A stretch of 64,000 nucleotides of DNA from a virus (Duplodnaviria > Caudoviricetes), in IMG/VR virus record IMGVR_UViG_3300025389_001380, positions 3,818 to 67,817 of that record. One strand, 5' to 3'. Shown here piece by piece: positions 13,143 through 57,010 of this stretch (positions are counted from its first letter, which is position 1; each line of letters starts with the position of its first letter). The translations under genes were made by a program, and so were the position numbers. Under the pieces are notes generated by a model that was not told the DNA's origin, did not search any database, and saw only the letters and a list, made by a program, of their open reading frames with translations.

Positions 13143-18408
<5,266 letters not shown>

Positions 18409-21800: not shown

Positions 21801-23064
21801 AGATATCCAGTGTTGGATTCAGCGGAGTGACCGTGACAGAACGCAGGTTGTCACCGAACACAGTGATACCGCTGTGCACCAAGATTGGATTTGGCTCTTC
21901 GTAGACACCAGCACGAACATATATGGTCACATAGATCCATGGGGTGCTGGGATTAGCTATGAGCAGCGCAGCAGCAGCGCAGGCGCTGGCTATGGTGCGC
22001 TTGGCTCGATCTTCTGCCAGGCCCGTGTTTGAATCGTCGCCATCTACCGTAACATACATCACGCCTGTCACGTGAGGTGCAGTGCGATGTGCTATGCCCT
22101 GCACGTATAGATCATTTGACACATACACGCCACCATCTGCCGGTGTCTGCAACACCAAGTTAGCAGATGCCAGCCTGTTGCGTATGACATCATTGACTAT
22201 CTGCGTGTTTTGGCTGGTTATGGCATTGACATTTAGCACGTTGTCCGTGCCCCAAGTGAACAAGCTGCTGCCGCCAAACACGTTGGCACCGGCATTGAAC
22301 TGAACGCTGCGCACAGGCGGAGCAGGTATGCCTATGCCAGTTGGTCCAGTTACACCCGTAGGTCCGGTGATACCAGTCGGGCCTGTGTACCCCGTTGGAC
22401 CTGTTTCTCCCGTAGGACCAGTTGGACCTGTGTCTCCCGTAGGACCTGTGGGTCCTGTTTCTCCTGTGGGACCAGTTGGACCTGTGGTAGCAGAAGTTGG
22501 ACCCGTTGGACCAGTTACCGTTGAGGTTGGACCAGTTGGTCCAGGAATACCTGGAAAACCCTGCTGCCCTGGCACGCCTTGCATGCCCAGAGGACCAGTA
22601 GGACCAGTAGGACCATTTGCAGGACCTGTTGGTCCCGTGATTTGGCTGGCTGCACCAGTTGGCCCTGTAGGGCCTACGGGATACCAGTTGGTGCTGTTGA
22701 AATATTCTATCTGATTCGTATCAGTATTATAGCGTATCTGTCCCACGACTGGCGGCGGACGTTGGCCTGTATCACCAACCGGCAGCACCACAGCGCTGGT
22801 GCCAGGGAATGTCAGCTGATAGTTTTGATCGCTGGTCTGAAACTGCGTGACCAACGTGACGCTGCCTGCAGCTAAGTTGCCAGTCTGTGCTGTGTAGACA
22901 GGTCCTGTGATACCTATCGTGGAAGCGGTGATGCTGTTGATAGCTGCATTTGCCGCTATGAAATTCTGCTGGATGGCAGCGAAGTTGTCCCTGAAGCCTT
23001 GGCTATCATTGTCTTGATTGGCTACTGGAAACTGCGTATTGATGGTATTTGGGTCAATGGCCAT
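18889..23064 (-). CDS. Virion structural protein with short collagen stretch and beta-helix-like domain (1391 aa)
   Basis: GPT run at about aa 130-245. Motifs [34 protein letters not shown] and [18 protein letters not shown] resemble cyanophage-type structural proteins. Confidence 0.75.
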
Positions 23065-26174: not shown

Positions 26175-26206
26175 AAAAACAGAGGTGGGCTTGTCCCACC
26201 TCTTTC
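26175..26206. terminator. Bidirectional intrinsic terminator
   Basis: A-run, then agaggtggg-cttgt-cccacctct, then T-run, between convergent genes. Confidence 0.75.
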
Positions 26207-26211: not shown

Positions 26212-26442
26212 CTAGATTTTTGGTATCTTGCCGTCGGTTCGTGCAACAGGTGGATACCCGTCGCGAGTGACTTTTATCTTGAACTTGGCAGCTTGCCGAG
26301 GTATCTCATCAACACCAACGTCAGGAGTAGTATTCACTCCCTTGACTATCTTACCAACACCAGCCTCCGTGAAGAAGTAGTAACTAGACTGATCCTCAGC
26401 TAATCGTATAGGGTGGTTGGTGATGAGATCGTTTAGCCTCAT
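26212..26442 (-). CDS. Small late protein (76 aa)
   Basis: Preceded by CTAAATA-tctcc-ATG. Confidence 0.65.
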   Translation of the reverse strand: MRLNDLITNHPIRLAEDQSSYYFFTEAGVGKIVKGVNTTPDVGVDEIPRQAAKFKIKVTRDGYPPVARTDGKIPKI

Positions 26443-26459: not shown

Positions 26460-27521
26460 TCAGGTGCGCAGATTCTTAGCTATGAAATCTTCAATGAGAT
26501 TCATGTTAGCCTGCAGCCTCGTATCACCTGGTAGCTTCTCCAGCGCTAGCTTAGCTTGTTCAAGAGATTCCTCATACAGCTTGAGATTCCATGCCGCGAT
26601 GCTTAGCAGATCATGCGGTTGCCATCCCCATGCTTCGGGTGTGCAGGTATAGTCCATGGGATGCTTGGTCACTTTTAGCGCACGGTGAGCGTAATCATAG
26701 CAGTTCTTCCAGTCTGCGGCTTCATAATAGTGCTGTGCTAGTGCTACCAACGGTTCGCGATGCGTTGGTACTTCATATGCAGCCTGCTTGAGCCAGAATA
26801 CCTTGTTGTCTGGTTCGGCCTGTGCTAGAGTGGTCAGCGCCTGGCAGCGCTCAACAGTATCATAGCTCATGCCAAGGAACTCCTTGTAGGTAGCTGCGCA
26901 CTTGTCCCACATCTTCTGATAGGCATATTCACGTCCCAGATAAGCCTTGATGCGGCTATCATGTGGCCATTCTCGCACGCTCTCTTCCAGCAGCGATAGA
27001 TCGCCACTCTTGCTCTTGGGATCCGGAAAGTGATGTATCTGGAAATCATCTGTGAAGGTGTGTATCTCTGGCAGCCTGCTGATCAGTCCCTCATGCGTGG
27101 CTCCCATCCAGCGATAGCCCTTGCGGCTGTGTATGCGATCACCATACCATTGGCGACCAGGTGTACCGTCTGCGTTCCAGTTCCAGATGTAGGGATAGCG
27201 CAGCCTAGTAGTCTCAGGCTTCCAAGCTGCTTCCAGCTTTTTACGCCAACCGGGGGTCAATCTCTCATCTGTGTCCAATCTGATGCACACGTCTATGTCG
27301 TCTGGGACCAGATACATGGCAGTGTTAAATGCATCGTCAAAGCGCCAAGGTATGATGCGCACGTCGGTGACCTGCACTCCCAGTTCCAACATCTTTTCCT
27401 TGGTGCCATCAGTGCTGCCAGTGTCGGCGATACAGATGATGTCAGCGTCCTTGCAGCTGTCATACCATGCCTGCACGTGGTGCACTTGGTTCTTGGTTGG
27501 TCCATATATTGCTATGCGCAT
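26460..27521 (-). CDS. GT2-family glycosyltransferase with C-terminal TPR-like helices (353 aa)
   Basis: MRIAIYGPTKN...DTGSTDGT...LDTDE...HE; helical C-terminus YLGREY...HREPLVALA. Start set at the TGATG overlap with the upstream gene. Confidence 0.85.
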   Translation of the reverse strand: MRIAIYGPTKNQVHHVQAWYDSCKDADIICIADTGSTDGTKEKMLELGVQVTDVRIIPWRFDDAFNTAMYLVPDDIDVCIRLDTDERLTPGWRKKLEAAWKPETTRLRYPYIWNWNADGTPGRQWYGDRIHSRKGYRWMGATHEGLISRLPEIHTFTDDFQIHHFPDPKSKSGDLSLLEESVREWPHDSRIKAYLGREYAYQKMWDKCAATYKEFLGMSYDTVERCQALTTLAQAEPDNKVFWLKQAAYEVPTHREPLVALAQHYYEAADWKNCYDYAHRALKVTKHPMDYTCTPEAWGWQPHDLLSIAAWNLKLYEESLEQAKLALEKLPGDTRLQANMNLIEDFIAKNLRT

Positions 27522-28594
27522 CACGCTTGTTCCTTGAGCTTGCCCTGCATCCATTGCAGGTTGGTTTTCAATCTATCGTCATTGGGATTTTGGTCTAGAG
27601 CCTGCTGGCACCATTCTGTTGCCTTGCTATACCATCCGAGATTAGCAGCAGCTATGCTACCAAAGTCGCCAAGCTGATTGCCCCAGGCATCTGCATTGTC
27701 TAGATAGCTGTGGTCTCGCCTGCTCTTATCCATGCCAGAACCTGCTGCCCACAGCAGGCCATGCCAATCTTGATTGTTGTAGTAATAACGTGCCAGTTCC
27801 AGCCACACTTGCCTGCGTTCTGGGCTGCAGATCAGGGCACGCTGTAGATATTCCAGCTTGCGGCTGTCAACCATGCGCGATATGTACAGCATGGCTTCTG
27901 AACGTTCTATGGGCCATCTGCTGTTTTCGAGATCCAGATAGCGATTGAGTTCTACCACTGCGTCTGCATGTTGCCCGGCATACATCAGCTCGCGACCATA
28001 CCAGAAGCTCAGCTGGCTGTCTTTGGGATCTTCTGCAGTGGCCAAGGCCATCAATGGCAGATAGCGACCGCGTGTATCCTTGGTGCGATCCTGTATCTGG
28101 TTCAGCACTATGCTGAGATCCTCTGCTACATTCTCATGTCCAACCGTGCTGAACACGGTCTCATGCACAGGACGCTGCCATTGATAACCTATCCTAGCAT
28201 GTATCTTGTCCATGCGGTAACCATCATTGGGCCCACCGTCGCGATAATCAAACACATAGGTGTAGGCCAAGCGCGTGGTCTCGCCTGTGCGCCAAGCTGC
28301 TTCCATCTTGGGTCGCCAACCTTTGGCTAGGAACTCGTCCATGTCCTGGCTGATGCAGATGTCCGTATCTAAGGGCAAGCAGGCCAGTGCAGCATTGCGA
28401 GCATGATCAAAGCGCCAGGGATCGAAGCGCTGCTCAAACACTGTCACGCCCAGCTCCCTGAGCTTTTCCACTGTGCCATCTGTGCTGCCAGTGTCTAGCA
28501 CCACTCTGTAGTCAGCATCTGCCACGCTGGCAGCCCAGCGCTCGCAGTGCTTGATCTCGTTTAATGCCACCGTATAGACACCAATTTTCATCAT
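27521..28594 (-). CDS. GT2-family glycosyltransferase with TPR-like helices (357 aa), paralogue of the previous gene
   Basis: KIGVYTVALNE...DTGSTDGT...FDPWRFDHARNAAL...QDMDE...PVHE. Confidence 0.85.
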   Translation of the reverse strand: MMKIGVYTVALNEIKHCERWAASVADADYRVVLDTGSTDGTVEKLRELGVTVFEQRFDPWRFDHARNAALACLPLDTDICISQDMDEFLAKGWRPKMEAAWRTGETTRLAYTYVFDYRDGGPNDGYRMDKIHARIGYQWQRPVHETVFSTVGHENVAEDLSIVLNQIQDRTKDTRGRYLPLMALATAEDPKDSQLSFWYGRELMYAGQHADAVVELNRYLDLENSRWPIERSEAMLYISRMVDSRKLEYLQRALICSPERRQVWLELARYYYNNQDWHGLLWAAGSGMDKSRRDHSYLDNADAWGNQLGDFGSIAAANLGWYSKATEWCQQALDQNPNDDRLKTNLQWMQGKLKEQA

Positions 28595-29166
28595 AAATCC
28601 TTTTCACTTCGTTGAAGTTTTGCCAGTGCTTTAGCTTTGCGTATATTTTCACCAACCTCAGGCGGACGTTTGCGACCAAGTTGAATCGTACTAATATGTT
28701 GGCCAAATTCGGGCGGTCTTTTTCTGCCTCGTAAAGGCGACGGTCCGCGTTTCTTACCTTTATGCGGACTTGGCCTGCCAAGATGTGCTAAACCAATTTT
28801 GATACCAACTTCGGGCGGTCTAGGTCGACCTTTTTGTGTGGCACTTCGCTTGGCATTTGATTCTGCAGTTTGTTTGCGGCCAGCCATTCCTTCGCCGCCA
28901 TCGGTAAGATTAATCAATATGCCAGTATCTGTGTCCTTACGACCATACCAGCGAATCATGCGTCTTTCTAATGCGAAAGCGCCTATCTCAGTGAGATTAG
29001 ATTCAAGTATAACAATCAAGACAAGATTGGCTGGCACTGTAATATTTTTATGTTTTTGCCAAGCTCTACCATGCTTACCTTTTCCGATATAATAAGGTGT
29101 GTTATCTGATTGCCGCAGGTAAGCGTAGACGTAATATCCGCTCGGATATCTCTTATAAGTAGACAT
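28591..29166 (-). mobile_element. Free-standing GIY-YIG homing endonuclease with NUMOD3-like repeats (191 aa)
   Basis: YVYAYLR...PYYIGKG...E..AF.LE..MI..YGR...G.L.NLTDGGEG and GRKRPPE repeats. Visibly AT-richer than its neighbours. GGAG SD before ATG 29166 (track extends to 29247). Confidence 0.85.
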
Positions 29167-29228
29167 GCTGTGTGCTCCATAATAGCCATAGAGCCGATGG
29201 ATGTTTGCAGCATCGCGATCGGCACAAT

Positions 29229-29235
29229 ATTTAGC
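29229..29235 (-). promoter_or_regulatory. Late-type promoter CTAAATA serving the endonuclease
   Basis: About 60 nt upstream of ATG 29166. Confidence 0.5.
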
Positions 29236-29248
29236 TATTTCAAGCATC

Positions 29249-29908
29249 TCAGTCCCTCACCATGCGATATCGCATGCCCTTTTGTAATTTAACTGGAATT
29301 CGCTTGGTCATCATATTTGTCGTGAGAAATAATTCGCTGCAGAAATCAATGCCATCTGCCGAATATAACCAAGGGATGCGCGAGAAGGTCTCACCGTAGT
29401 CGCGCATGACATGCATGCTACCATAGCCAAACTGGTCATTGTGTGCCACATGCCACTGACCGCGATGTTGGAAATTGTGTCCGCCTAATCCAGGATCATC
29501 TGGTACCGTGAGACCCTCAAAGGGTTCAAGCGCAAACTGATCACAGTGCCAATCAAAGCGAGCACGAGCAACATAGTCGTAGGTCTTGCGGTGCTGCCAA
29601 GCATGCCGATCAGCCAGCTGCAGGCTCTGACCTATGCTGTACCACATGCTGAGCACGTTGCGCGGCTGTGATCTATAGGCCCATATGCGTGACGTATAGA
29701 TGCTGGTATCAAACTCGCGCTGAGACTCTATGATCATCTCTGTGGGAGCATAGACGCTGCTGATCCAGTTGCGAGTGGTCTCGTGATTATCTGACCAAGC
29801 ATGCACGAACACGTCAGTGTCATGCTGATCAATCAGGCGGCGCCAGCTATCCGTGCTAACGCTGGTTATCCTCGGCAATCCTGCGAAGCACAGTGCTAGC
29901 TTTGCCAT
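29249..29908 (-). CDS. Putative glycosyltransferase-like protein (219 aa)
   Basis: KLALCFAGLPR...DVFVHAW...SMWYSI...YDYVARARFD, a pattern I associate with viral GT-A-like proteins. Confidence 0.55.
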   Translation of the reverse strand: MAKLALCFAGLPRITSVSTDSWRRLIDQHDTDVFVHAWSDNHETTRNWISSVYAPTEMIIESQREFDTSIYTSRIWAYRSQPRNVLSMWYSIGQSLQLADRHAWQHRKTYDYVARARFDWHCDQFALEPFEGLTVPDDPGLGGHNFQHRGQWHVAHNDQFGYGSMHVMRDYGETFSRIPWLYSADGIDFCSELFLTTNMMTKRIPVKLQKGMRYRMVRD

Positions 29909-30369
29909 GCCCTCAGCCGATTAACGTGATCGCTGCAGAAGCCATACCAATGCCAGCTGCGCACCATGTTTTCAATCTCATCCCAGCCGTAGGTCACTTC
30001 TGGCATCACGCACACGCTCATTGGGCTAACTGTCTCTGGCTTGCCAAAGTACGTCCATATCACGTTGGTGCTGGTCAGCGTGACGGTGTCACTCTCGTGC
30101 CAGAAGAAGTTGTAATGGTGCTTGAGGCTGCGCAGAGTGAAAAGCGCATCGAGATTCTTGCAGTGAATCCAGAGACCTTTCTGCTGCAGGAAACTGATGT
30201 CAGTGTCATGTTCTGGTCCATCATGTCCCAGCACCCACTTGCCATCCACGTGCCATACGTCTATCTCAGCTTCAAACCCATGGTCCAAAGCTTTGATTAT
30301 CTGGTCAGGGCGATTCTGCATGTTGTCATCTGGACCATCCATCAACCCGCGGTGCGCTATGAACTTCAT
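29896..30369 (-). CDS. Short glycerophosphodiester phosphodiesterase (GDPD/PLC)-like protein
   Basis: IAHRG...EIDVW...LGHD...WIHCKN. Confidence 0.75.
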   Translation of the reverse strand: MKFIAHRGLMDGPDDNMQNRPDQIIKALDHGFEAEIDVWHVDGKWVLGHDGPEHDTDISFLQQKGLWIHCKNLDALFTLRSLKHHYNFFWHESDTVTLTSTNVIWTYFGKPETVSPMSVCVMPEVTYGWDEIENMVRSWHWYGFCSDHVNRLRAWQS

Positions 30370-30370
30370 G

Positions 30371-31513
30371 TCACACCTGCAGATCGTCTATGGCGCGGCG
30401 TATCTTCTGCGTGCCTGCCAGCGTGCCATCCGGATGCCCGTGTATGGCGCCGCCCACGTTGGCCATCCAGTCGATGCCAAACTTCTCCACGATCGGCGGT
30501 ATCAGCTCAGCAGTCATGCCACAGCTCAGCGCAGGCACCACGTTGCCGTCATGCAGCGTCTGCATGTAGGCAGTGATCTCGTCCTCAGGATCACTGAGAT
30601 ATCCGCCCCACATGCCTGCGTGTATGGTGTCCACGCCGCTCATGGCTGCCAGCTGGCACAGCACGGTCCATTCAATGCCAAAGGGATTGCGCTTGCCTGT
30701 GATGACCTTGTCACCGCTCTTTTGATAGTGTATGAACAGCGGGAGATCCAAGTTGCGTATGGTGCGATAGCTACCTAGTCCACTCCACACGTTTATGTGC
30801 ACGCCGTTGCCACCGTTCTGACTGACGAACCTTGCACGATTTTCAATGTGCGCAGGATCGCTGTTGATGCAGAAGCAGTACACCACGTTCTTGCCAGTGA
30901 TGTAGTTGCTGATCAGTTCCACGCGATCTTCCAAGCGGCACACAGCTGGATTGCTCAGTATCTCGTCTTCCTTGATGAAGTTGACGCCACCTTCCACCAG
31001 CTGCTTGGTCATCTCCAACAGCACCTGCGGCGTGATGCCAGTCTTGGGCTTGACGATGCCACCAAAGAACGGCTTGCCAAAGTTGCCTGTGTATTCACGC
31101 ATGCCAGTGATGCCGTACTTGGGCTTGCGGAAATGCGTGTCAATGGTCTGTGGGTGTATCTCTAGACCAACCACCCTGCACTTCTTGATGGTGTCAATGT
31201 CTACCTGACCGCCCTGTATAATGCACAGCAGGTGAGCTATGCCATCTTGATCCCAGTCAATGTTAGCGCTGGGATAGCCAATGGTGACATGTCCCTTCTT
31301 CTTTTCAAAATCCTTGCTGCGTATGATCTTGGCACAGTAGGCTTCGATCATCTCGTCAGTTTCCCACACTGAGCGCTTGGTTGGGTTACCTATGCTCTGT
31401 CCCACTGCTATGTTCCAGCCTGCGTCATAGACGCTGACCGTGCTCTCAACTTCATAGGTAACGTAGAAATACGTGCCCAGTTCTTTCTCGTCTCTGACTA
31501 TGTCTATGCTCAT
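30371..31513 (-). CDS. RuBisCO-like protein (form IV, 380 aa)
   Basis: GGIVKPKTG, GGVNFIKEDE (carbamylated-Lys motif), HYQK, HAG, SCG and VGGAIHGHP. Loop-6 Lys is replaced (GGYL). Start set at the ATGA overlap at 31513. Confidence 0.88.
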   Translation of the reverse strand: MSIDIVRDEKELGTYFYVTYEVESTVSVYDAGWNIAVGQSIGNPTKRSVWETDEMIEAYCAKIIRSKDFEKKKGHVTIGYPSANIDWDQDGIAHLLCIIQGGQVDIDTIKKCRVVGLEIHPQTIDTHFRKPKYGITGMREYTGNFGKPFFGGIVKPKTGITPQVLLEMTKQLVEGGVNFIKEDEILSNPAVCRLEDRVELISNYITGKNVVYCFCINSDPAHIENRARFVSQNGGNGVHINVWSGLGSYRTIRNLDLPLFIHYQKSGDKVITGKRNPFGIEWTVLCQLAAMSGVDTIHAGMWGGYLSDPEDEITAYMQTLHDGNVVPALSCGMTAELIPPIVEKFGIDWMANVGGAIHGHPDGTLAGTQKIRRAIDDLQV

Positions 31514-31842
31514 GATTCTTTCTTCACCTCTATCTTGTCGCCAGGCACGCTGGGGGTCTTGATCACCACCACTTGGCAATCTGCTAAGAATTCTGGATCT
31601 GCTATCTCGCCCTTTTTCAAGAGGAATATGGTCGGGCCAACCAGTATCTGGTCCTGTATCCTCATGACACCATCCACCAACAACGTGATCTCATCCATGT
31701 GCTCGTGGTAGTGAGCGGGCCATGGTTCTCCGGCTGCGTGGAACTTGTAACCAACTTCAAAATCTTTGGTGTTCCAGATGCTGGGTTGGAAGTCTCCAAC
31801 GAACCAACCACCTGTGAACAGCTTGGGATCAAATACTTTCAT
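31510..31842 (-). CDS. Cupin-fold protein (110 aa)
   Basis: GGWFVGDF...HYHEHMDEITLLVDG metal-binding cupin motif. Confidence 0.7.
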   Translation of the reverse strand: MKVFDPKLFTGGWFVGDFQPSIWNTKDFEVGYKFHAAGEPWPAHYHEHMDEITLLVDGVMRIQDQILVGPTIFLLKKGEIADPEFLADCQVVVIKTPSVPGDKIEVKKES

Positions 31843-32552
31843 TTGTGCGCCTCTATGTAGATTTCCAAGTCTTCTGGCGTACCTATTGGCCAGTGCTCTT
31901 GGGGTGGATAGATACCTATGCGATCACCGCGTGCGATGTTCCAATTATAGACTGGACACACGTAGAATTCATTATTCACTCGCACGTTGTCTGCGATCAT
32001 CTGCTCAGCTGCCCACACAAAGTCTTCGCCTCGCGTCCAAACATAGATGCCAGTGGTAGCATGCGGGCTAATCACCTGTTTCTCAGCAGTGCGCACAGCT
32101 ATGCCGTTGTCATCAACTTCAACGTAGCTGTACGCTGTGGTGTCCTTGAAGAAGGTCAGCATGGCACCATCAAGCCGCTCTGCTGCTAGCCATTCCTCAA
32201 AGTGATCCTGGTCCCAGACCATCATCTGATCACAGTTGGCAATGAACAGCGTTTCCTTTGGTTTGATGTGCTGCTTGGCCAGCAGGCATGTCTCAGCAGC
32301 ACCCTGCGTGACCTGATCAACGAACACGATGTTGAGATCTGCTGACATGTCTCTGAGCCTGCTGAACAGCGCAGGATCTGCATCATAATGTTCGCGCAAT
32401 ACGCACAGAGTGAAGGTGTTGTGCAGGCCGAGGTTCTCCAGCACATGCTGTACCATGGGCTTGCCAAAGAACTCTATCAATGGTTTTGGTTTTGAGTAAC
32501 CCTGTTGAGCAAATCGCGAACCTCGCCCGCTCATGGGTATTAGTATGTGCAT
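31839..32552 (-). CDS. Sugar-phosphate nucleotidyltransferase (NTP_transferase family)
   Basis: IPMSGRGSRF...PKPLI...GAAET...NCDQ...EK...NNEFYVCPVYN...GTPEDL. Confidence 0.85.
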   Translation of the reverse strand: MHILIPMSGRGSRFAQQGYSKPKPLIEFFGKPMVQHVLENLGLHNTFTLCVLREHYDADPALFSRLRDMSADLNIVFVDQVTQGAAETCLLAKQHIKPKETLFIANCDQMMVWDQDHFEEWLAAERLDGAMLTFFKDTTAYSYVEVDDNGIAVRTAEKQVISPHATTGIYVWTRGEDFVWAAEQMIADNVRVNNEFYVCPVYNWNIARGDRIGIYPPQEHWPIGTPEDLEIYIEAHK

Positions 32553-32611: not shown

Positions 32612-33301
32612 TCACTGCTTTGTAGAAGCGAAAAGCTTGCCTATCTCTCTTGCAGTGTCCTTGATATTGCGTTCTGCAACTGTGGTATCTGCTATATCTG
32701 TGCTGTAATCAACTCCTACGAAACCAAATAGATCACCGTTGCTCATGTATATGGGGCAGCGTATGAGATGCTTGGCATTGCGGCTCATCCAGAAATAATA
32801 ATCCTGGTTTTCCTTGTCCTTGTCAGTGTTCTTGATTATGGCACACTTGTCATTGACAAACTGGTTGTTGATAGCCATGTGTATGCTGGCAGGTATGCGC
32901 TGTTCAAAGCTCATGATGCGCGACGTTCCCGGACTGATGACCTCATGAGTCATGGTCTGGAAGAAGAAAGGTACTCCGCTGATAGCTGCTAGACCGTTGT
33001 GATAGCGATACACATAGGCTCGCATGCCATTGCTGTCCGTGAGCAGGCGATTGAGATTGCGATAGATGCTGTTGTCGTTTTCCACAGAAGTCTTGAGATT
33101 CATGCTGAAGCTGGTAATGCTGTGAGCTTCCTCATACACGGAAATCAAGCTGGTGAAATGGAATGCTACCACATAGGCAGTGGAGAACACAGCAGTTATA
33201 GCTGCTATGTAGAACAAGTGCACAACCAGCATGATTGGACGAGTGTTGGACAGATAATCCACTGCCACCTGGGCTATCGTCACTTGTTTTTGCTCGTCCA
33301 A
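32612..33301 (-). CDS. Membrane protein with GAF-like C-terminal domain; possible T4 gpT-type holin
   Basis: One hydrophobic N-terminal segment (aa ~24-50), then RAYVYRYHNG...CPIY...LFGFVGVDY, a GAF-like pattern. Confidence 0.45.
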   Translation of the reverse strand: MDEQKQVTIAQVAVDYLSNTRPIMLVVHLFYIAAITAVFSTAYVVAFHFTSLISVYEEAHSITSFSMNLKTSVENDNSIYRNLNRLLTDSNGMRAYVYRYHNGLAAISGVPFFFQTMTHEVISPGTSRIMSFEQRIPASIHMAINNQFVNDKCAIIKNTDKDKENQDYYFWMSRNAKHLIRCPIYMSNGDLFGFVGVDYSTDIADTTVAERNIKDTAREIGKLFASTKQ

Positions 33302-33392: not shown

Positions 33393-34271
33393 ATGGAAGA
33401 TTATTACAAGATATTAGAGCTAAACGAGTCGGCATCGCCCGAAGAGATTAAAGCTGCATATCGCCGCTTGGCCAAGGTCCATCATCCGGATCTCAACAAG
33501 GGCAACGCAGAATCAGAAGCACTGTTCAAGAAGATCAACGAAGCCAACGACACGTTGGGTGATCCTCAAAAGCGTGCTCAGTATGATCAGCAGCGGCGAT
33601 ACGGACAGGGAGGACCAGGGGGAAATCCATTTGGTGGGTTCCCTGGGCAGGAGTTCCATTTCAGCTTTGGCGGGCAGCCGTTTGAAGACGTGTTCAATCA
33701 GTTCTTTGGCGGCGGACATCCTTTTTCGCGTCCGCAGCCACGCAACCGAGACTACCAGTTCAATCTCAACATCAGTTTGGAAGACGCATTCACGGGCAAG
33801 AGCATGCCTGTGAGCTTTGATGCACACGGCAAGAACACCAGCATCACCGTTAACTTGCCAGCTGGCATAGAGCATGGAGCTCGCATGCGCTACCAAGGAC
33901 AGGGTGAGCGCAACGTGCCCAACGCACCTCCGGGCGATCTCTACATCACCGTGATGATCAATGAGCACAGCGTGTTCCAGCGACACGCACATCATCTGCA
34001 TACCAACATGAAGGTTGATGCCATCGGAGCCATGCTGGGCATAAAGCAGGACCTAAAGACCATTGACGGCAGCATGATAAACGTCAGCGTTCCAGCTGGC
34101 ACTCAACATGGAGCCACCCTGCGCGTGCAGGGACATGGCATGCCAGTGCAGCACAACAGCAAGCAGCGCGGCGATCTCTACATACATGTTGAGCTTTCTA
34201 TACCAACCAATCTAACCTCTAACCAACGCGACATGCTGGTCGAGATCCAGCGACAGAGGAGTTCCGTATGA
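33393..34271 (+). CDS. dnaJ: DnaJ-class co-chaperone without zinc finger (class II, CbpA-like)
   Basis: DYYKILEL...HPD J-domain, G/F-rich linker and DnaJ-C with GDLY motifs. Confidence 0.93.
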   Translation: MEDYYKILELNESASPEEIKAAYRRLAKVHHPDLNKGNAESEALFKKINEANDTLGDPQKRAQYDQQRRYGQGGPGGNPFGGFPGQEFHFSFGGQPFEDVFNQFFGGGHPFSRPQPRNRDYQFNLNISLEDAFTGKSMPVSFDAHGKNTSITVNLPAGIEHGARMRYQGQGERNVPNAPPGDLYITVMINEHSVFQRHAHHLHTNMKVDAIGAMLGIKQDLKTIDGSMINVSVPAGTQHGATLRVQGHGMPVQHNSKQRGDLYIHVELSIPTNLTSNQRDMLVEIQRQRSSV

Positions 34272-34777
34272 TACTGCCAGTTGTAACACGTCCACATCCA
34301 GTGCTAAAGCAGGCTGCACGGCTGATCGCACCAGAAGAGATACCCAATCTCGGGCCGCTGATCGACGACATGTTTGATACCATGGCTGCTTATGGAGGTG
34401 TGGGTTTGGCAGCGCCGCAGGTTGGACACAGCATCAACATGTTCGTAGTGCGAGTTGACGGCAACGATCATGTTTTCATCAATCCAGTGGTGCTGCATGC
34501 CGGTGACGAGATGGACGAGATGCCAGAAGGTTGCCTCAGCTTGCCAGGGGTCACTCTAAAGATCAAGCGCAGCAAGCAGATCAAGGTCATGTACAGGGAT
34601 CGCGCTGGCAACCAGCAGATCACTGATCTCGGCGAAGGTTGGAGCCGCATCTTCCTGCACGAATTTGATCATCTACAGGGAGTCATGATCGACGACCGCG
34701 TGGGCCGAGCCACTTTGGATCTCGCCAAGCGCAAGGCAGCAAAGAGATTGAAGCGCCAACAGAGGGCTGCAGCATGA
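34268..34777 (+). CDS. def: Peptide deformylase
   Basis: All three PDF motifs are present: GVGLAAPQVG, EGCLS and HEFDH. Confidence 0.95.
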   Translation: MILPVVTRPHPVLKQAARLIAPEEIPNLGPLIDDMFDTMAAYGGVGLAAPQVGHSINMFVVRVDGNDHVFINPVVLHAGDEMDEMPEGCLSLPGVTLKIKRSKQIKVMYRDRAGNQQITDLGEGWSRIFLHEFDHLQGVMIDDRVGRATLDLAKRKAAKRLKRQQRAAA

Positions 34778-37062
34778 GCATGAACACGTTTGAAGCGCCG
34801 CTGCAGCGAGCTTATCAGCTGGCCAGCAGCTTGAACCATGAATTGGTCACTCTTGAACATCTGCTAGCAGGGCTGCTAGAGATAGAACAGATACAGCAGC
34901 TGATCATCCGAGGCGGCGGCAATCTAGACAACATTGTCAAGGCCACTAGCGATTGGTTGGGCAATGACAGCAATCACGTGATCATCAAGCAGGGCAGCTT
35001 CCAGCCTCGCCACACAGCATTGCTGAGCAACGTGATCAAGAAAGCCAAGACGCAGAGCATGTTCAGCGGTCGCAATGATATCGGACCTGTGGACATCTTC
35101 CTTGCGCTGTATCACATCCCAGACAGCCCAGCTAGCTGGTTCATAGAACAGTTCGCACCACCCAAAGAGCGAGTAGCAGAACTGCTACACAGAGGTGATA
35201 TCGAACCTGATGCAGAAATGGACAGCAAGACAGCGCTGGAGATACTGCACACTTACTGCATCAATCTCAATGCCAAGGCACAGGCAGGACGCATAGATCC
35301 CTTGATTGGTCGCGAGCGTGAAGTTGAACAGATCTGCCAGATCATGGCACGCCGCAACAAACACAACGTGATCATGACCGGTGACCCAGGCGTGGGCAAG
35401 ACCATCATAGTGGAAGGTCTAGCACGTCGCATCGTAGAAGGTGCTGTGCCTGACAGCTTGATCGATCACACCATCTGGAACCTAGACGTGGCCACGTTGG
35501 TAGCTGGCACCAAGTTCCGCGGTGACTTTGAAGAGCGCCTCAAGCAGATCATCGCAGCACTGACCGCACTGCCCAAGACCATAGTGTTCATAGACGAGAT
35601 CCACATGATCATGGGCGCTGGCAATGGCGGCGGTGGCGGCAGCATTGACGCAGCCAACATGCTGAAACCAGCACTGAGCCGCGGTGAGATCTGCTGCATT
35701 GGCAGCACTACCAACGAGGAATATCGCAAGCACTTTGAGAAGGATCGTGCGCTGGTACGTCGCTTCCAAAAGCTGGACATATTTGAACCCAGCATCGAGG
35801 ACAGCAAGCGCATCCTACAGGGCATTGCCAAGCACTACGAAGAATATCATGGCATCGAGTTTGAACCAGAAGCACTAGATGCAGCTGTGGATCTCACTGC
35901 TAGGCACATGCACGACCGCTGCTTGCCAGACAAAGCCATTGACATCATTGACAGCGCAGCTGCCTGGCAGAGGATCAAACCCGAAGCAGAACGTGCTAAA
36001 GTTCTCACACGAGAGATGATAGAAGCAGAAGTCAGCAGAGTAGCCAAGGTACCTGTTACTACAGTTAAGAGCAAGGAAGCAGACAATCTCGCACGCCTTG
36101 ACACTGATCTCAAGGCCAAGATATTTGGTCAGCAGGATGCCATCGACGGAGTGGTCAATGCCATCTACATGAGCCGCAGCGGCCTGCGTGAAAGCGACAA
36201 GACCGTGGGCAGCTTCTTGTTCTCAGGGCCAAGCGGCGTGGGCAAGACCGAAGTTGCCAAGCAGCTGGCCAAGAGCCTGGGTGTGCATTTTGCTCGGTTT
36301 GACATGAGCGAATACCAAGAACGCCACACCGTGAGCAAGTTCATAGGATCACCTCCAGGCTATGTTGGATACGGAGACGGAGGTGCAGGCGGTGGTGTGC
36401 TGATCAACGAGCTTGACACTCATCCTCACTGCGTGCTGCTGTTTGACGAGATTGAAAAAGCACATCCAGATGTCTACAACATCTTCCTAGCACTGATGGA
36501 TCACGGAACGGTTACCAGTAGCCAAGGCAAATCTGCCAGCGCACGCAATGCTATCGTGATCTTTACCAGCAATCTTGGCGCAGCTGACATGGAGAAAGAA
36601 CTGATCGGCTTTACCAAGAGCACTGTGCGCGATGAGGACACGCAGGCTATCAACAAGTTCTTCACGCCAGAGTTCCGCAACAGGCTGGATGCTATCATCA
36701 AGTTCAACAAGCTGAACAAGGACAACATGGACAGCATCGTTGACAAATTCCTCAGTGAGCTCAATACTCTAAGCACACGCAAGAACGTGAACATAGTGTG
36801 CGATCCAGCTGCTAAACAGTGGCTGATCGACAAGGGATTTGACAGCAACATGGGAGCACGGCCATTGGCAAGGGTGATCGCAGAAAACATCAAGAAACCC
36901 CTGAGCCGCGAGATGCTGTTTGGCAAGCTGCGCCACGGTGGTGCTGTGATGATCACAGCCAAAGACGGCAAGCTGGAGTTTGAATATCTCAGCAATCCAG
37001 AACCTGCAGAAAGCGCAACGCTGCTGCTGCCAAATGCTGTCACTGAAAGCGTACCTTCATGA
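34774..37062 (+). CDS. clpA: ClpA-like Hsp100 AAA+ unfoldase
   Basis: Clp N-domain, NBD1 GDPGVGKT, pore loop GTKFRGDFEERL, NBD2 GPSGVGKT, IGF ClpP-docking loop (ELIGFTK); no ClpB middle domain. Confidence 0.9.
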   Translation: MSMNTFEAPLQRAYQLASSLNHELVTLEHLLAGLLEIEQIQQLIIRGGGNLDNIVKATSDWLGNDSNHVIIKQGSFQPRHTALLSNVIKKAKTQSMFSGRNDIGPVDIFLALYHIPDSPASWFIEQFAPPKERVAELLHRGDIEPDAEMDSKTALEILHTYCINLNAKAQAGRIDPLIGREREVEQICQIMARRNKHNVIMTGDPGVGKTIIVEGLARRIVEGAVPDSLIDHTIWNLDVATLVAGTKFRGDFEERLKQIIAALTALPKTIVFIDEIHMIMGAGNGGGGGSIDAANMLKPALSRGEICCIGSTTNEEYRKHFEKDRALVRRFQKLDIFEPSIEDSKRILQGIAKHYEEYHGIEFEPEALDAAVDLTARHMHDRCLPDKAIDIIDSAAAWQRIKPEAERAKVLTREMIEAEVSRVAKVPVTTVKSKEADNLARLDTDLKAKIFGQQDAIDGVVNAIYMSRSGLRESDKTVGSFLFSGPSGVGKTEVAKQLAKSLGVHFARFDMSEYQERHTVSKFIGSPPGYVGYGDGGAGGGVLINELDTHPHCVLLFDEIEKAHPDVYNIFLALMDHGTVTSSQGKSASARNAIVIFTSNLGAADMEKELIGFTKSTVRDEDTQAINKFFTPEFRNRLDAIIKFNKLNKDNMDSIVDKFLSELNTLSTRKNVNIVCDPAAKQWLIDKGFDSNMGARPLARVIAENIKKPLSREMLFGKLRHGGAVMITAKDGKLEFEYLSNPEPAESATLLLPNAVTESVPS

Positions 37063-37658: not shown

Positions 37659-38993
37659 ATGATCAGCGTCACACTATTAGGTACCACTTACGATCAGATC
37701 AACGTCGTTGGACAGAAGGTCCCAGGCGCTGGTTACAACAACACGGTTGGTAACAACCATACCGTCAGCATCAATCTGGATAATTTCGTAGGCCGCATCT
37801 ATATACAGGGTAGCTTGGCCACAGATCCAAATCCAGACACTGATTGGTTCAACATACCCATAGGCAACGGCACGCCTTATGTGCAGTTTCCCTTGGATGC
37901 CGCATTGCCAACAGGCAACAACCCAGCGCTGAACCAATGGCCTGCCAACCAATATCCCACTGCTCAACAGGGTGATACTGGCATAGTTGCCTATAGCTTT
38001 AGCGGAAACTACATCTGGGTCCGTGCAGTGGTTGATAGGACCTATCTAGTTCCGCCTCCTACTGATCCATATTTCGTGGGTGCAGTCAGCCAGATACTGT
38101 TGAACTATGGTGCCATCGCCAGCAGCACTGTTGCGCCGCAGGCAACCAACACAGGCGGTGCTCAAGGACCTCCCGGACCTCCAGGTCCAACTGGTCCGCA
38201 AGGTACAGGTCCTACAGGCGCTGCTGGTCCCACGGGTCCTGCTGCTAGCGGAGCTTTCCAACGATACGACAGCTATGCTACGCCTGGCCAGACCGTTTTC
38301 TACGCATCATACACTCCAAACTTCGTAGACGTCTACTACAATGGTCTGCTGCTGGTTCCAGTGAGCGACTACACTGCCACAGATGGATCAACAGTGGTAC
38401 TGACCAGCGCAGCGCTGGGCGGCGATCCAGTCAGCATCGTAGCTTGGGAGATAGCCAATCTCAGCCAAGTGACAGGTCCTACAGGTCCCAGCGGCGGTCC
38501 AATAGGTCCAACTGGTAACACTGGTCCAACTGGTCACTCAGGACCAACAGGTCCAATCAGCACCGTGCCAGGTCCAACTGGAACTACAGGTTACACCGGT
38601 CCCACAGGCGCTACAGGTGCCACCGGCGCTGCTGCCACTAATCTGATCAGCTTCAGGCTGCTGTTCAACAGCGGCATCATACTACCAACCAATTTCGTAG
38701 ACAACTGCGTGAACATCAATCCTGATCAGATAACCAGGGCCAGCGATACGCAGATCACCATAGTGCACAACATGAACGCCTATCCAGGCATGGTGACTTG
38801 CCAAGGTGGTCCTCTGGCTCAACCAGCAGGCGCATATAGACAAACAGTGCCAAATGCTGCTACCACTGGCAGCTACAGCTCATTGAGCTTGGACATCAAC
38901 ACTACCAGCTTGTTCGCGCTAACACCCGGCAACACGGGCATCCCAGCCAGTGGGAATGGATATCTCTGGGTCACCATGATATTCACGGGTTGA
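37659..38993 (+). CDS. Virion structural protein with collagen segments (444 aa)
   Basis: GPT runs and one GQTVF-Y-P-FVDVYYNG-L-DYTATDG module. Confidence 0.7.
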   Translation: MISVTLLGTTYDQINVVGQKVPGAGYNNTVGNNHTVSINLDNFVGRIYIQGSLATDPNPDTDWFNIPIGNGTPYVQFPLDAALPTGNNPALNQWPANQYPTAQQGDTGIVAYSFSGNYIWVRAVVDRTYLVPPPTDPYFVGAVSQILLNYGAIASSTVAPQATNTGGAQGPPGPPGPTGPQGTGPTGAAGPTGPAASGAFQRYDSYATPGQTVFYASYTPNFVDVYYNGLLLVPVSDYTATDGSTVVLTSAALGGDPVSIVAWEIANLSQVTGPTGPSGGPIGPTGNTGPTGHSGPTGPISTVPGPTGTTGYTGPTGATGATGAAATNLISFRLLFNSGIILPTNFVDNCVNINPDQITRASDTQITIVHNMNAYPGMVTCQGGPLAQPAGAYRQTVPNAATTGSYSSLSLDINTTSLFALTPGNTGIPASGNGYLWVTMIFTG

Positions 38994-39005
38994 TGGAGGC
39001 ATAAA

Positions 39006-41216
39006 ATGGCATCCATACTCCCTATACTCACGCTGTATGTGGACAACATAACCATAACACCATTGGCATATTGGCCAGTTGACGAAGGTCCTGTGTATGG
39101 TTATGATCAATGGTGGTTAGGAGGACCTGCACCGCAGCCCTATCAGTGGACCATGACTGCCACGGTTACTCAGCAGAACCACAGCAGCTTTAGCACGCCG
39201 CAACTGTACATCTATGACGCCCTGGACATACAGGTTGGCATGTGGTATGGTGAAGCAGCCACAGGACGTTGCACCCAGATAGTAGAGATCATATCCGCCA
39301 CTGCTGATACCATAGTATGCGTGATAGAAGACACGGGTCGCTGGGAACAGTTCAGCAGCCCCAATGGTGTTGCAACAGCAGGTGATCCAGGATTCATCTT
39401 CACCATTGACGAGGATGGTGTACCTGTATTCCACACGCTGACTCTGTACAACAGCTTCATACAGCCCTATCCAGGCTTCCTGCAGGACGTGATCAGCAAG
39501 TTTGAAGCACGCAACCTCAAGCAGAACTTGGTAACGGTTTATCAGCCAAACAACGGTTTCTCAGTCGGCAACGTCATTTACCTCGGTCCAGATGGCTACT
39601 ATCGCCAAGCTGTAGCCAATGTTGCTGTCAGCACCAACGTTATTGGCACAGTGAGGCAGCTGGGAATACCGGGCTATGATTATTTCAGCTGGGAACCCAG
39701 AGGCAAGATATTATATGACCTCAGTGGATTGCCTGGCAATCCAGGTGACGTGCTGTGGCTGAGCCCTGACACCCCCGGTGGTCTCACCAGCGTCAAGCCT
39801 GCCAACTTGGCCATGGCTGTGTACATAAAGATCAATGATACCAGTGCAGTAAAGCTGGCACAGGTCGGCTACGTAGGCCCAATCAACAACTACACTGCCA
39901 CAGTACCGCCTACCATCAACAACGACGAGACTCAGGGTTACAGCTTTGGCAGCATGTGGATAGACATTGCCACGCACGTGGCATATATCTGCATCAATCC
40001 AACTACAGGCAACGCCAACTGGCAAGTGCTGGGAGCAGGAGGGCAAGGTGCAACTGGCGCAACTGGACCTCAAGGTCCAACAGGTGTCACTGGTCCTGCA
40101 GGAACTGCTACCAACACAGGTGCTACTGGTAGCACTGGTCCAACTGGTGCTGCAGGTCCCACAGGTCCTGCAGCGTTGGGTGCATATGCTCGCTTTGATC
40201 TCACGGCATCGCCGGGTCAGACTGTGTTCGCCGCGACGTATTATCCAAACTACGTAGATGTCTACTACGACGGTGTGCTGCTCACGCCCGACCTATATAC
40301 TGCTACAAATGGCACCACCATCACACTGGCAAACGCTGCCATAGGCGGCGATCCAGTAACCATCATAGCATGGCAGATAGCAGGTGTGAATCCCACAGGA
40401 CCTACTGGTAACACTGGTCCGATCGGTCCAACAGGTCCTGCCAACGTTGGAGCCTTCCAAGAATACAACTTCAACGCTAGCAGTGGACAGACCATATTCA
40501 CCTGCGCATATACACCGCCATATGTTGAAGTATATGTAAACGGTGTCAAGCTTACACCAAGCGAATATAACGCTACCAATGGTACTCAGGTCATATTGAA
40601 TGCTGCCAGCGTGGCAGGAGACACTGTTGATGTCATAGCATGGAGCGTGAGCTCCATAAGCCAACTAACAGGTCCAACTGGTCCAACAGGCGTTGCAGTT
40701 GGTTATTTTGTCAGCAATATAGCAGTGCGCAACAGCCTCACAGTGACCTTAGGTACCATCGTTTACGTTTACGATGATGGTAGTGGTCACAACCAAGCCT
40801 ATCTAGCGGCACAGCTTGGACCTACCGTCTGGGTACCATTGGGGTTGAATCTGGATGGCAATAATGTTGGCAACAGCACCAGCGGGTTTCAGACGCTGTC
40901 TTATGAATTCACAGCTACCGGTGATTATACCAATACAAATGCTGTGGTGGTCGGAACCATGGCTCCAACCGTAACAGTGACCGAGCTAGACGTGAGCATC
41001 TTGACACCTTTCAACGATCCAGCAGCATTTCTAACAGTAGGCAATCCTGCTAGCCATGCATTGCTTATGGGCAACGGGCAGATAAACACTCAGACTGTGG
41101 GAACCTACATAGGCAAACCAAACTATCTAGTCACGCAAACTACCACAATCAATGCATATGTTGGGGTTGGAACCAGCACAACAGGCAGTTGGCGCATCAA
41201 GATGAGCTACAGCTGA
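39006..41216 (+). CDS. Virion structural protein with collagen segments (736 aa)
   Basis: GPT/GAT runs, two GQT-F/VDVY-NG modules and an NDETQGYSFGSMW motif. Confidence 0.7.
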   Translation: MASILPILTLYVDNITITPLAYWPVDEGPVYGYDQWWLGGPAPQPYQWTMTATVTQQNHSSFSTPQLYIYDALDIQVGMWYGEAATGRCTQIVEIISATADTIVCVIEDTGRWEQFSSPNGVATAGDPGFIFTIDEDGVPVFHTLTLYNSFIQPYPGFLQDVISKFEARNLKQNLVTVYQPNNGFSVGNVIYLGPDGYYRQAVANVAVSTNVIGTVRQLGIPGYDYFSWEPRGKILYDLSGLPGNPGDVLWLSPDTPGGLTSVKPANLAMAVYIKINDTSAVKLAQVGYVGPINNYTATVPPTINNDETQGYSFGSMWIDIATHVAYICINPTTGNANWQVLGAGGQGATGATGPQGPTGVTGPAGTATNTGATGSTGPTGAAGPTGPAALGAYARFDLTASPGQTVFAATYYPNYVDVYYDGVLLTPDLYTATNGTTITLANAAIGGDPVTIIAWQIAGVNPTGPTGNTGPIGPTGPANVGAFQEYNFNASSGQTIFTCAYTPPYVEVYVNGVKLTPSEYNATNGTQVILNAASVAGDTVDVIAWSVSSISQLTGPTGPTGVAVGYFVSNIAVRNSLTVTLGTIVYVYDDGSGHNQAYLAAQLGPTVWVPLGLNLDGNNVGNSTSGFQTLSYEFTATGDYTNTNAVVVGTMAPTVTVTELDVSILTPFNDPAAFLTVGNPASHALLMGNGQINTQTVGTYIGKPNYLVTQTTTINAYVGVGTSTTGSWRIKMSYS

Positions 41217-47753: not shown

Positions 47754-48557
47754 ATGTATTCAAACATCATAGTGGTATGTTATGCACCTGGTGCCAGAGG
47801 CAATGCCATAGGCCACATCATTGAGCTGAGTCCTAGCATACATAATCGCAATACTAAACAAGATATCGTGTGCCCCGATGCCAACGGCACCATGCACAAC
47901 ATAGACATGCGGTTTGGCCTTTGGCCAGATGCAGGACAGCTTGGGGTAAACATTTTTGCCAACGACCGCGGGTTCAAATACCAATTAGATCTTGATCTTA
48001 GTAGTATGGCCCCTGTCTGGCAGCAGTGCATGTCTAACCTACAATTCAGCAGATATGACCCAATACCTCTGCTACAAGGACTGCAAACTAGGCGCATAGT
48101 CACCGCTGACCACATACGATCAATACATGCTTTGCAGCTGATGCCAGGCTGCAGGCCTGTTGCAGTAACCGGCGATCCAGAACTGGCACTGCGCTTACTA
48201 TGGGCCAAATGGGAATTGCAGCCGCCTCCAAGATGGCATCATTGGCATGAGCAATACCCAAACACACCAATGTTAGATCTGCAGATAGCCGAGTACGAAA
48301 AAATACCAATAGAATCGGTAACCGACCAACTGCGAGCAGAAGAATGGGAATTCAGCTTGGAAAAAACACGCCGTTGGCATGAATACCATAGGACAGATCC
48401 GTGTGCATTCAGTTTGGATTTCCAATCACTGTTTGATCAGGACACAAGCTACGAAACATATCACAAAATGGTGGATGCTCTAGAATTGGAACCAAACTGG
48501 ACAGCAGTCAGCCAGTTCATCGACGTGTATAATGCAGCTCAACCAAAGCACTTGTGA
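47754..48557 (+). CDS. Hypothetical protein, possible sulfotransferase-like P-loop fold (267 aa)
   Basis: N-terminal IIVVCYAPGARGNAIGHII loop. The family call is tentative. Confidence 0.5.
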   Translation: MYSNIIVVCYAPGARGNAIGHIIELSPSIHNRNTKQDIVCPDANGTMHNIDMRFGLWPDAGQLGVNIFANDRGFKYQLDLDLSSMAPVWQQCMSNLQFSRYDPIPLLQGLQTRRIVTADHIRSIHALQLMPGCRPVAVTGDPELALRLLWAKWELQPPPRWHHWHEQYPNTPMLDLQIAEYEKIPIESVTDQLRAEEWEFSLEKTRRWHEYHRTDPCAFSLDFQSLFDQDTSYETYHKMVDALELEPNWTAVSQFIDVYNAAQPKHL

Positions 48558-48604
48558 AAATCTCTGATTTATGTTATCATCTTGTATCGCATAGGAGATA
48601 ACAC

Positions 48605-48649
48605 ATGACTGATCCGCGCAAGAGAATGATCTGGGTGAGATTTCACTAA
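48605..48649 (+). pseudogene. Stranded 14-codon remnant of the original dpdL-like N-terminus (MTDPRKRMIWVRFH*)
   Basis: Has its own AGGAG SD (48593-48597); 10/14 aa identical to the start of the gene at 49349 (MTTPRKRMIFVQFQ). Confidence 0.8.
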
Positions 48650-48655
48650 TAAATA
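48649..48655 (+). promoter_or_regulatory. Late-type promoter ATAAATA serving the endonuclease
   Basis: Overlaps the remnant's stop codon; AGGAG SD at 48661 follows. Confidence 0.6.
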
Positions 48656-48672
48656 CATGTAGGAGTATCAAC

Positions 48673-56792: not shown

Positions 56793-57010
56793 TGCCATTG
56801 ATATACGAAAGCCCAGACAAAGGCGTCACAGTCTATGGCAGAGAGCTAGGACACATGGATCGCCATCTGGTAAAGGGCAACCCAACAGATCCCTACGAGC
56901 ATCTCTATCTGTGGCATGACATCGTCGCTGCCAGTGAAACCAATCCAGCCTTGCGCGAAGTGCTGGATCAAGCTATAATGATCTATAAGCTGAGCAAGGA
57001 GCAACCATGA
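56792..57010 (+). CDS. Conserved phage hypothetical protein (72 aa)
   Basis: IYESPDKGVTVY-R motif; coupled to its neighbours. Confidence 0.7.
   Translation: MPLIYESPDKGVTVYGRELGHMDRHLVKGNPTDPYEHLYLWHDIVAASETNPALREVLDQAIMIYKLSKEQP

Follow-up and report, generated by a model that had tools for sequence, protein, structure and literature searches.

A phage RuBisCO-like protein in a conserved cassette with a nucleotidyltransferase and a proposed role in glycan biosynthesis

Introduction

To our knowledge, every characterised RuBisCO-like protein (RLP) acts in salvage or catabolism. Here we analyse an RLP gene carried by a 64,000-nucleotide stretch of phage DNA (IMG/VR virus record IMGVR_UViG_3300025389_001380, positions 3,818 to 67,817; "the window" means this whole stretch), where it stands in one operon with genes for a nucleotidyltransferase (NTase), a cupin, a GDPD-like phosphodiesterase and glycosyltransferase-like proteins. 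We think it fairly probable that this operon is a biosynthetic module whose enzymes start from a sugar phosphate of the host, make from it an unusual sugar (or sugar or polyol phosphate) in nucleotide-activated form and attach that product to a glycan.

Phage RLPs have been described before: Jaffe, Castelle, Dupont and Banfield (2019, Mol Biol Evol; PMC6389311) reported about 80 of them, with relatives in Beckwithbacteria, and left their function open. An earlier examination of the window from its letters alone (the sequence-only reading) knew of no characterised phage example, and none of these proteins has indeed been characterised, but phage RLPs as such were already on record. The closest described pairing of an RLP with a cupin is the MTA-isoprenoid shunt of R. 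rubrum and R. palustris, which uses the DeepYkr RLP (5-methylthioribulose-1-P 1,3-isomerase) and a cupin methylsulfurylase (PMC5893883). On the side of nucleotide activation, phages are known to convert ribulose-5-P into UDP-arabinofuranose with an isomerase, a kinase and a nucleotidyltransferase (PMC13326640). A full-text literature search found no paper in which nucleotidyltransferases or glycan synthesis are linked to an RLP.

The RuBisCO-like protein: active site and family placement

The five genes at 29249-32552 that had been named from the letters alone all lie on the minus strand, and their identities proved right, including those of the cupin and the GDPD-like protein, which Pfam misses. 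Together with two glycosyltransferase genes further downstream, they are:

31839-32552, minus strand: NTase with an N-terminal PMSGRGSRF motif (PF00483; PDB 4evw)
31510-31842, minus strand: cupin, 110 amino acids (orthologue profile against the PDB, AlphaFold2 model, Foldseek)
30371-31513, minus strand: RLP, 380 amino acids (PF00016 and PF02788)
29896-30369, minus strand: GDPD/PLC-like mini-phosphodiesterase (mini-GDPD), 157 amino acids (profile against GDPD 7e0v, and motif)
29249-29908, minus strand: DUF7796 protein, predicted GT-A-like fold (Pfam in family members, AlphaFold2, Foldseek)
27521-28594, minus strand: GT2 with C-terminal TPR repeats, paralogue a (Pfam GT2 and TPR; phrog_13126, E 2.1e-86)
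26460-27554, minus strand: GT2 with C-terminal TPR repeats, paralogue b (Pfam; phrog_13126, E 4.2e-88)

The true start of the RLP is the ATG at 31513 and not the TTG at 31579; called genes in the protein database encode 380 amino acids at 100% identity. Both of its domains score above the Pfam cut-offs (PF00016, E 8.6e-38 and 130.7 bits against 30.1; PF02788, 25.2 against 20.7), which by profile match makes the protein a member of the RuBisCO large-subunit superfamily. We mapped the active site by alignment with form I RuBisCO from Azospirillum and scored it over 114 homologues. K175, K177, the Mg/carbamate residues K201, D203 and E204, and H327 are retained and invariant, as are S379, G381, G403 and G404 of the P1 phosphate site. 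At five positions the replacement is itself invariant (H294Q, R295K, K334Y within GGYL, G380 to C and T173 to I), and E60, T65 and N123 are also replaced. The alignment thus bears out the sequence-only reading, which had listed the lysines, Mg site, histidine and phosphate-binding glycines as kept and the loop-6 lysine as lost, and it adds H294Q and R295K to that list. Because H294Q, R295K and K334Y are invariant across relatives, the protein is placed by alignment outside the carboxylating RuBisCO forms I-III and is predicted not to be a carboxylase, as had been proposed. The Mg and P1 sites are invariant and the carboxylase residues invariantly replaced, which is consistent with a conserved non-carboxylating chemistry; such a site can, judging from its residues, enolise a phosphorylated keto sugar.

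The RLP falls below every NCBIfam cut-off (rubisco_III, 170 against 497; OiaX, 132 against 700). Comparison with methionine-salvage enzymes had been named beforehand as a check, and the scores against the MtnW equivalogs are low (PRK09549, 125 against 409; TIGR03332, 99 against 514), so that on profile scores the protein is neither an MtnW/YkrW-type DK-MTP-1-P enolase nor the OiaX of the apiose pathway. Among solved structures, the protein is closest to form III enzymes, where phmmer E-values do not fall below 2e-35. These scores bear on the idea of a catabolic or detoxifying auxiliary gene, in which the RLP would degrade the phosphate of a sugar acid and so supply the central metabolism of the infected host. 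The characterised RLPs outside the MtnW group (apiose, tetronate) are catabolic and OiaX is the third-best NCBIfam match at 132 bits, but that score is far under the cut-off of 700, the gene has no linked transporter, kinase or dehydrogenase of the sort that catabolic operons usually contain, and its fixed partners are an activating enzyme and transferases. We regard a catabolic role as extremely unlikely.

In a FastTree phylogeny rooted on form I and two OiaX-like RLPs (Azospirillum and Nonomuraea), the latter two fall outside the clade formed by the RLPs studied here. The deepest branches within that clade are Legionellaceae and Francisellaceae, and the next are Elusimicrobia, Nonomuraea and Turneriella. 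Bacteroidota, DPANN (with one SAR11 clade) and CPR (including Beckwithbacteria) split off after these, before a crown that contains all 68 viral and metagenome sequences. The window RLP belongs to a nine-member huge-phage clade (support 99), and a Beckwithbacteria sequence (L098) adjoins the viral crown just below it (support 98-99). Judged by this placement, the protein matches the phage 'Form IV-like' clade of Jaffe et al. (PMC6389311). RLPs of this kind occur in 180 IMG/VR loci; tblastn with the window RLP and an RLP of a T4-like clade found no match in 50,697 isolate phage records, a set that may lack records close to the window.

Other cassette proteins

The NTase scores well above its Pfam cut-off (PF00483, E 3.9e-10, 40.2 bits against 21.2), has as its closest solved relative the NDP-sugar pyrophosphorylase 4evw (E 5.7e-16), and carries the N-terminal G-x-G-(S/T)-R loop as GRGSRF, with G9, G11, R13 and K23 invariant. 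Score and loop together identify it, at the level of sequence, as a PF00483 sugar-phosphate nucleotidyltransferase.

The 110-residue protein has no Pfam match as a single sequence. A profile of 46 orthologues matches PDB cupins (E 1.7e-6), the AlphaFold2 model (pLDDT 96) reaches a Foldseek probability of 1.0 to cupins, and a metal motif H44-x-H46...E51 is invariant, as is D102-K103; modelled fold and HxH...E motif assign it to the cupin superfamily. Thermococcus phosphomannose isomerase 7zvy ranks first among structures (Z 12.5; Foldseek, VIA-align).

The mini-GDPD has the GDPD (PF03009) catalytic motif HR..EN..ExD..HD, with H6, R7, N19, E35, D37 and H49 invariant, and GDPD is its Atlas lead (0.88). 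Its profile aligns with the 54 N-terminal catalytic residues of GDPD 7e0v only (E 1.2e-4), and at 157 amino acids, against a TIM barrel of about 230 or more, it is not a full-length GDPD and has no Pfam match. For the glycosyltransferase-like protein, DUF7796 is matched in 19 of the 22 family members. Its AlphaFold2 model (pLDDT 94) predicts a Rossmann-like GT-A fold nearest to GT6 enzymes (Foldseek probability 1.0; TM 0.5-0.57), with 4ayl matched at E 1.4e-7 and a TM of about 0.55; a profile search of PDB sequences gave no match. R117-x-D119 and D158 are invariant, and no clear DxD is present.

A conserved cassette in glycan-biosynthesis loci

The cassette of NTase, cupin, RLP and mini-GDPD recurs in about 130 loci from phages, SAR11, Legionella, Nonomuraea, CPR and DPANN, usually in the order NTase-cupin-RLP-GDPD. 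By tblastn in the first 86 loci fetched (two of them the window's own), we found the NTase in 83, the cupin in 78 and the GDPD-like protein in 68. The NTase adjoins the RLP in 45 of 50 loci from cellular genome assemblies, many of which also have the cupin and GDPD-like genes in another order, and the linkage extends, with varying gene order, to Legionella, Nonomuraea, Azospirillum, Turneriella, SAR11, CPR and DPANN. Clustering of all open reading frames (ORFs) within 6 kb of the RLP in 131 RLP loci gave these family counts:

RLP: 131 loci
NTase/cupin: 126 loci (the NTase accompanies the RLP in about 126 of 131)
GDPD/DUF7796/methyltransferase: 92 loci
WavE: 43 loci
NAD-dependent epimerase/dehydratase: 42 loci
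DegT: 13 loci
SDR: 10 loci
GT11: 10 loci
DHQS-like cyclase: 9 loci

Conservation of the neighbourhood with the NTase and the cupin, another check named in advance, is therefore strong.

An RLP next to a cupin is also the gene pair of the MTA-isoprenoid shunt (RPA2169/RPA2170; PMC5893883). A salvage shunt for methylthioadenosine (MTA) or 5'-deoxyadenosine would have the RLP isomerise 5-methylthio- or 5-deoxy-ribulose-1-P and the cupin release the thiol to give deoxyxylulose-5-P, which would be useful to a phage running radical-SAM enzymes, and the window does encode a QueE-like radical-SAM enzyme (57007-57918). Against this, the constant partner is the NTase, the loci are rich in glycosyltransferases and NDP-sugar enzymes, and many of them, as in Legionella and DPANN, have RLP and NTase with no cupin. 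The MtnA/IF-2B isomerase was not found in the complete relative G406, though a host enzyme could serve, and a profile scan of 401 alphaproteobacterial genomes, a sample that may miss the reference species, returned only cassette copies as RLP-adjacent cupins, the other hits being weak and away from any RLP. A salvage function is, in our judgement, highly unlikely. A metagenome protein search with the cupin found 1879 relatives, the best 120 of which carry generic source names.

The surroundings of the cassette point to glycans. Gmd scores 451 and 474 bits against a cut-off of 415 and WecB 244 against 210, and further neighbours include Fcl-like and PseB-like enzymes, DegT, WavE, GT11 and GT2. 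In four Legionellaceae, a LicD gene (PF04991, E 1e-42) adjoins the RLP-NTase pair, and the cupin and GDPD genes are missing. Scores of Gmd and WecB above the cut-offs, together with the presence of DegT, WavE, GT11 and LicD, mark the RLP cassette loci as glycan-biosynthesis loci. Upstream of LicD-RLP-NTase, the Legionellaceae loci (L126, L128, L129 and L132) also have four conserved unannotated genes for proteins of about 148, 337, 113 and 323 amino acids, and those of 148, 337 and 323 have no Pfam match.

The same surroundings weigh on another alternative, that the activated sugar is a donor for DNA hypermodification, placed on a modified base (compare arabinosyl-hydroxycytosine) for restriction evasion. 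In its favour, pentose phosphates are the source of the NDP-pentoses with which phages glycosylate DNA (PMC13326640), DNA modification is frequent among huge phages, and the window has the QueE-like gene. However, the same cassette occurs in cellular genomes and beside polysaccharide-type Gmd, WecB, GT11, WavE and LicD, the sole thymidylate-synthase-family gene of G406 (345 bits) looks like an ordinary ThyA and not like a base hydroxylase or hydroxymethylase, and TPR-GT2 enzymes are not known as DNA glycosyltransferases. We hold such a donor role to be highly improbable.

In Nonomuraea rosea JCM 17326 (contig 69, L124), the cassette lies in an island between a phage-type integrase and a transposase, which also encodes a GT2 and adenosylhomocysteinase-like, deoxynucleoside-kinase-like and radical-SAM proteins. 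The last three would suit a product other than a glycan unit, namely a small metabolite linked to a nucleotide (a natural product of nucleoside type or a signal, for instance). This context is found in one genome only, whereas nearly all the remaining loci are clusters for glycans that encode several glycosyltransferases, and we consider a small-metabolite product very unlikely. In a T4-like subclade (L018, L019, L030, L031, L034, L040, L047 and L054), genes for a fructosamine-kinase-like protein, a dehydroquinate-synthase-like sugar-phosphate cyclase and an SDR directly follow the RLP and may form a separate cyclitol module.

Fusions and displacement of the RLP

NTase and cupin are fused in six loci, and HAD::NTase or NTase::HAD fusions occur in five; where examined, the HAD domain is nearest to the beta-phosphoglucomutase family. 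A 706-residue RLP-cupin-NTase fusion in Azospirillum was rejected as an ORF-calling artefact of a high-GC genome, the RLP being in another frame.

Isolate phages carry the cassette NTase in 20 records and the mini-GDPD in 17, nearly all of them Synechococcus myoviruses. Two of these, Bellamy (L166, 161284-168802) and SynMITS9220M01 (L167), have a HAD protein, a PfkB-like kinase, an NTase::RpiB fusion, the cupin and DUF7796, and the RLP is absent. The RpiB part of the fusion matches PF02502 (E 3.9e-32), and the mini-GDPD is directly next in SynMITS9220M01 and five genes downstream in Bellamy, which additionally encodes a class II aldolase/AraD-family protein and a protein with two tandem nucleotidyltransferase domains. 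RpiB, the PfkB-like kinase and the cyanophage-type HAD are absent from all 131 RLP loci. A third isolate, S-CAM9, lacks both cupin and RLP; its 461-residue NTase has an extra N-terminal domain and is followed by a 242-residue protein, a HAD hydrolase and the mini-GDPD.

The simplest reading of these arrangements has two layers: NTase and GDPD-like protein (or LicD) are an activation and transfer core, and RLP and cupin are one of several exchangeable modules that act before it and shape the sugar phosphate. Since the RLP-less cassettes of Bellamy and SynMITS9220M01 carry NTase::RpiB, the RLP appears to take the place held elsewhere by an aldose-ketose isomerase, and this analogy suggests that it is a sugar-phosphate isomerase or epimerase feeding nucleotide activation.

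A proposed pathway

What is observed is the identity of the genes, the pattern of the active site, the conserved linkage, the fusions and the setting in glycan loci; from these we infer each chemical step, the substrate, the nucleotide and the acceptor of a possible route. A host keto-sugar phosphate would bind the RLP with its phosphate in the P1 pocket, and the carbamyl-Lys/Asp/Glu Mg site would form an enediolate whose re-protonation, in place of carboxylation, would yield an epimer or a carbonyl-shifted isomer. The metal-dependent cupin, which is phosphomannose-isomerase-like by an unspecific match, may then carry out a second isomerisation, and the NTase would couple the product X to a nucleoside monophosphate to give NDP-X. 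Transfer of X to the acceptor would finally fall to the mini-GDPD (in Legionella, LicD), the GT-A protein of DUF7796 and the GT2-TPR pair, and the linkage could be glycosidic or phosphodiester.

Several points weigh against this route. The source of an anomeric sugar-1-phosphate is unexplained in G406 (complete, 518,643 bp), which has no PfkB kinase, HAD_2 mutase/phosphatase, PRK or IF-2B isomerase. The fold match of the cupin is generic, as 7zvy ranks within 1 Z of seed storage proteins and dimethylsulfoniopropionate lyases; the GDPD assignment rests on about 54 residues and the motif; and displacement of the RLP by RpiB is known from two related isolates.

The lack of a kinase/mutase set in G406 favours a donor activated at its original phosphate. 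Given this lack, and given that phosphodiester enzymes (GDPD-like, LicD) are constant downstream partners, we rate a donor with its original non-anomeric phosphate activated about as likely as the classical sugar-1-phosphate route. By analogy, the former would resemble the routes to CDP-ribitol and CDP-xylulose, and the latter those to GDP-mannose, ADP-heptose and phage UDP-arabinofuranose. The sequence-only reading had gone further, to a perhaps branched NDP-sugar that decorates virion proteins. The evidence here supports neither a branched sugar nor virion proteins as the target, nor an NDP-sugar in the strict anomeric sense, since a donor of phosphodiester type would accord just as well with the LicD and GDPD-like partners.

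A wider and more tentative proposal, which we consider possible but rather unlikely in full, is that this whole RuBisCO branch (phages, SAR11, Legionella, CPR and DPANN) is anabolic, its members being isomerases or epimerases interchangeable with RpiB-type enzymes on the way to a novel nucleotide-activated sugar phosphate, and that the mini-GDPD is a new phosphotransferase that would place it in phosphodiester linkage on surface or virion glycans.

The phage and the operon

The window makes up most of a 67.8-kb IMG/VR record with a CheckV completeness of 13%, and PHROG matches to virion and tail-fibre proteins confirm that it is phage DNA. Because the closest relatives with the same operon are contigs of 485-519 kb, among them G406 (with direct terminal repeats and rated complete), the window comes from a huge phage of about 0.5 Mb.

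A single coupled operon on the minus strand spans 33301 to a terminator-like hairpin at 26203-26181. As the sequence-only reading had it, the genes overlap or abut, with overlaps of 4-34 nt or 1-nt spacing at all junctions except two: the first gene is followed by a 59-nt gap, and a 76-residue ORF (26212-26442) with no assignment lies between the last GT2-TPR gene and the hairpin. The features not listed above are:

32612-33301, minus strand: first operon gene, 229-residue protein (orthologues of 34-78% identity at the same position in L003-L012)
28591-29247, minus strand: GIY-YIG/NUMOD3 homing endonuclease, 218 amino acids (NUMOD3 clusters, phrog_314)
26181-26203, minus strand: terminator-like hairpin (stem of 9 pairs, 6 of them G-C, then a T run)

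The hairpin is probably the operon end; promoter and terminator counts in the operon do not exceed those of shuffled controls, and the terminator-like class is not enriched. The 229-residue protein has no relative in Pfam, NCBIfam or the PDB (including a profile search of PDB sequences), and among the fetched loci its gene and the GT2-TPR pair are confined to the huge-phage clade.

The operon had been described as leading straight into the two TPR-GT2 genes. The pair is present, but the homing endonuclease intervenes, free-standing between the DUF7796 gene and the first GT2-TPR gene and overlapping the latter by 4 nt. It matches NUMOD3 clusters (Atlas score 0.96) and the homing endonucleases of phrog_314 (E 4.2e-9), and its translation shows a GYYVYAY...YYIGKG motif and three GR(P/K)RPPE(V/F)G repeats. 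No homologue occurs in any related locus, and the closest relatives (L007-L009) do not have it at this place; it is an insertion and lies outside the pathway. We rejected this 218-residue protein as a DUF7796 relative, hhalign being negative.

Divergent from the operon, at 33393-37062 on the plus strand, lie DnaJ-like, peptide-deformylase-matching and ClpB-type double-AAA genes, a trio that is syntenic in all huge-phage relatives (L003, L005 and L007-L012) and always beside the operon. Giant ORFs at 5074-13089, 13143-18377 and 18889-23064 (minus strand) and 41283-47744 (plus strand) encode 2671, 1744, 1391 and 2153 amino acids. The 1391-residue protein and proteins encoded at 37659-41216 match tail-fibre PHROGs, several described as collagen-like, and the glycan operon therefore sits among tail-fibre genes. 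The QueE-like gene (plus strand; phrog_2076, E 3.7e-50) hints, from its sequence match, at 7-deazaguanine metabolism or DNA modification in this phage. G+C content is 0.42 at 48001-50000 and about 0.51 elsewhere in the window, and the ORFs at 48673-50832 and 50863-52521 have no PHROG match.

Significance and comparison with known systems

A biosynthetic role in glycans, if true, would be a new functional class for a much-studied enzyme fold and would give a function to a large phage RLP clade unexplained since 2019. Since abundant aquatic phages and SAR11 commonly carry the cassette, its product could be a widespread surface component of microbes and viruses, relevant to phage-host recognition. 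We found culturable carriers (three Legionella species, Nonomuraea rosea JCM 17326 and Azospirillum oleiclasticum), which make the question directly testable, and the RLP-less cyanophage isolates offer a natural comparison.

The window RLP shares with the 'Form IV-like' proteins of Jaffe et al. its clade, its phage setting, its divergence from the named RLP clades and the loss of carboxylase residues; the linkage to NTase, cupin and mini-phosphodiesterase, the fusions and the displacement by RpiB are not in PMC6389311. As in the DeepYkr pair, an RLP stands beside a small cupin, and the DeepYkr RLP likewise isomerises through an enediolate with no carboxylation. The partners here, in contrast, are an NTase, a phosphodiesterase and glycosyltransferases, G406 has no MtnA, the cupin is dispensable in many loci, and what the two cupins are seen to share is the fold.

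In the GDP-mannose, ADP-heptose and UDP-arabinofuranose routes, a central ketose phosphate is isomerised and then nucleotide-activated, as would be the case here; the cupin::NTase domain order is that of bifunctional PMI-GMP, and relatives have HAD::NTase and NTase::RpiB fusions. Unlike those routes, the present one would use a RuBisCO-fold enzyme as the isomerase, in a huge phage with no mutase or kinase of its own and with a GDPD-like protein in the core. LicD-type CDP-alcohol systems (CDP-choline, CDP-ribitol, and CDP-arabinitol via CDP-xylulose) differ in that the phage loci have the mini-GDPD in constant position and no LicD, the NTase is of PF00483 and not IspD/TarI, and there is no constant reductase. 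The likeness to them is that the Legionellaceae RLP-NTase pair is flanked by LicD, and that a mutase would not be needed if a non-anomeric sugar phosphate were activated as NDP-X, which would fit the minimal gene set of a huge phage.

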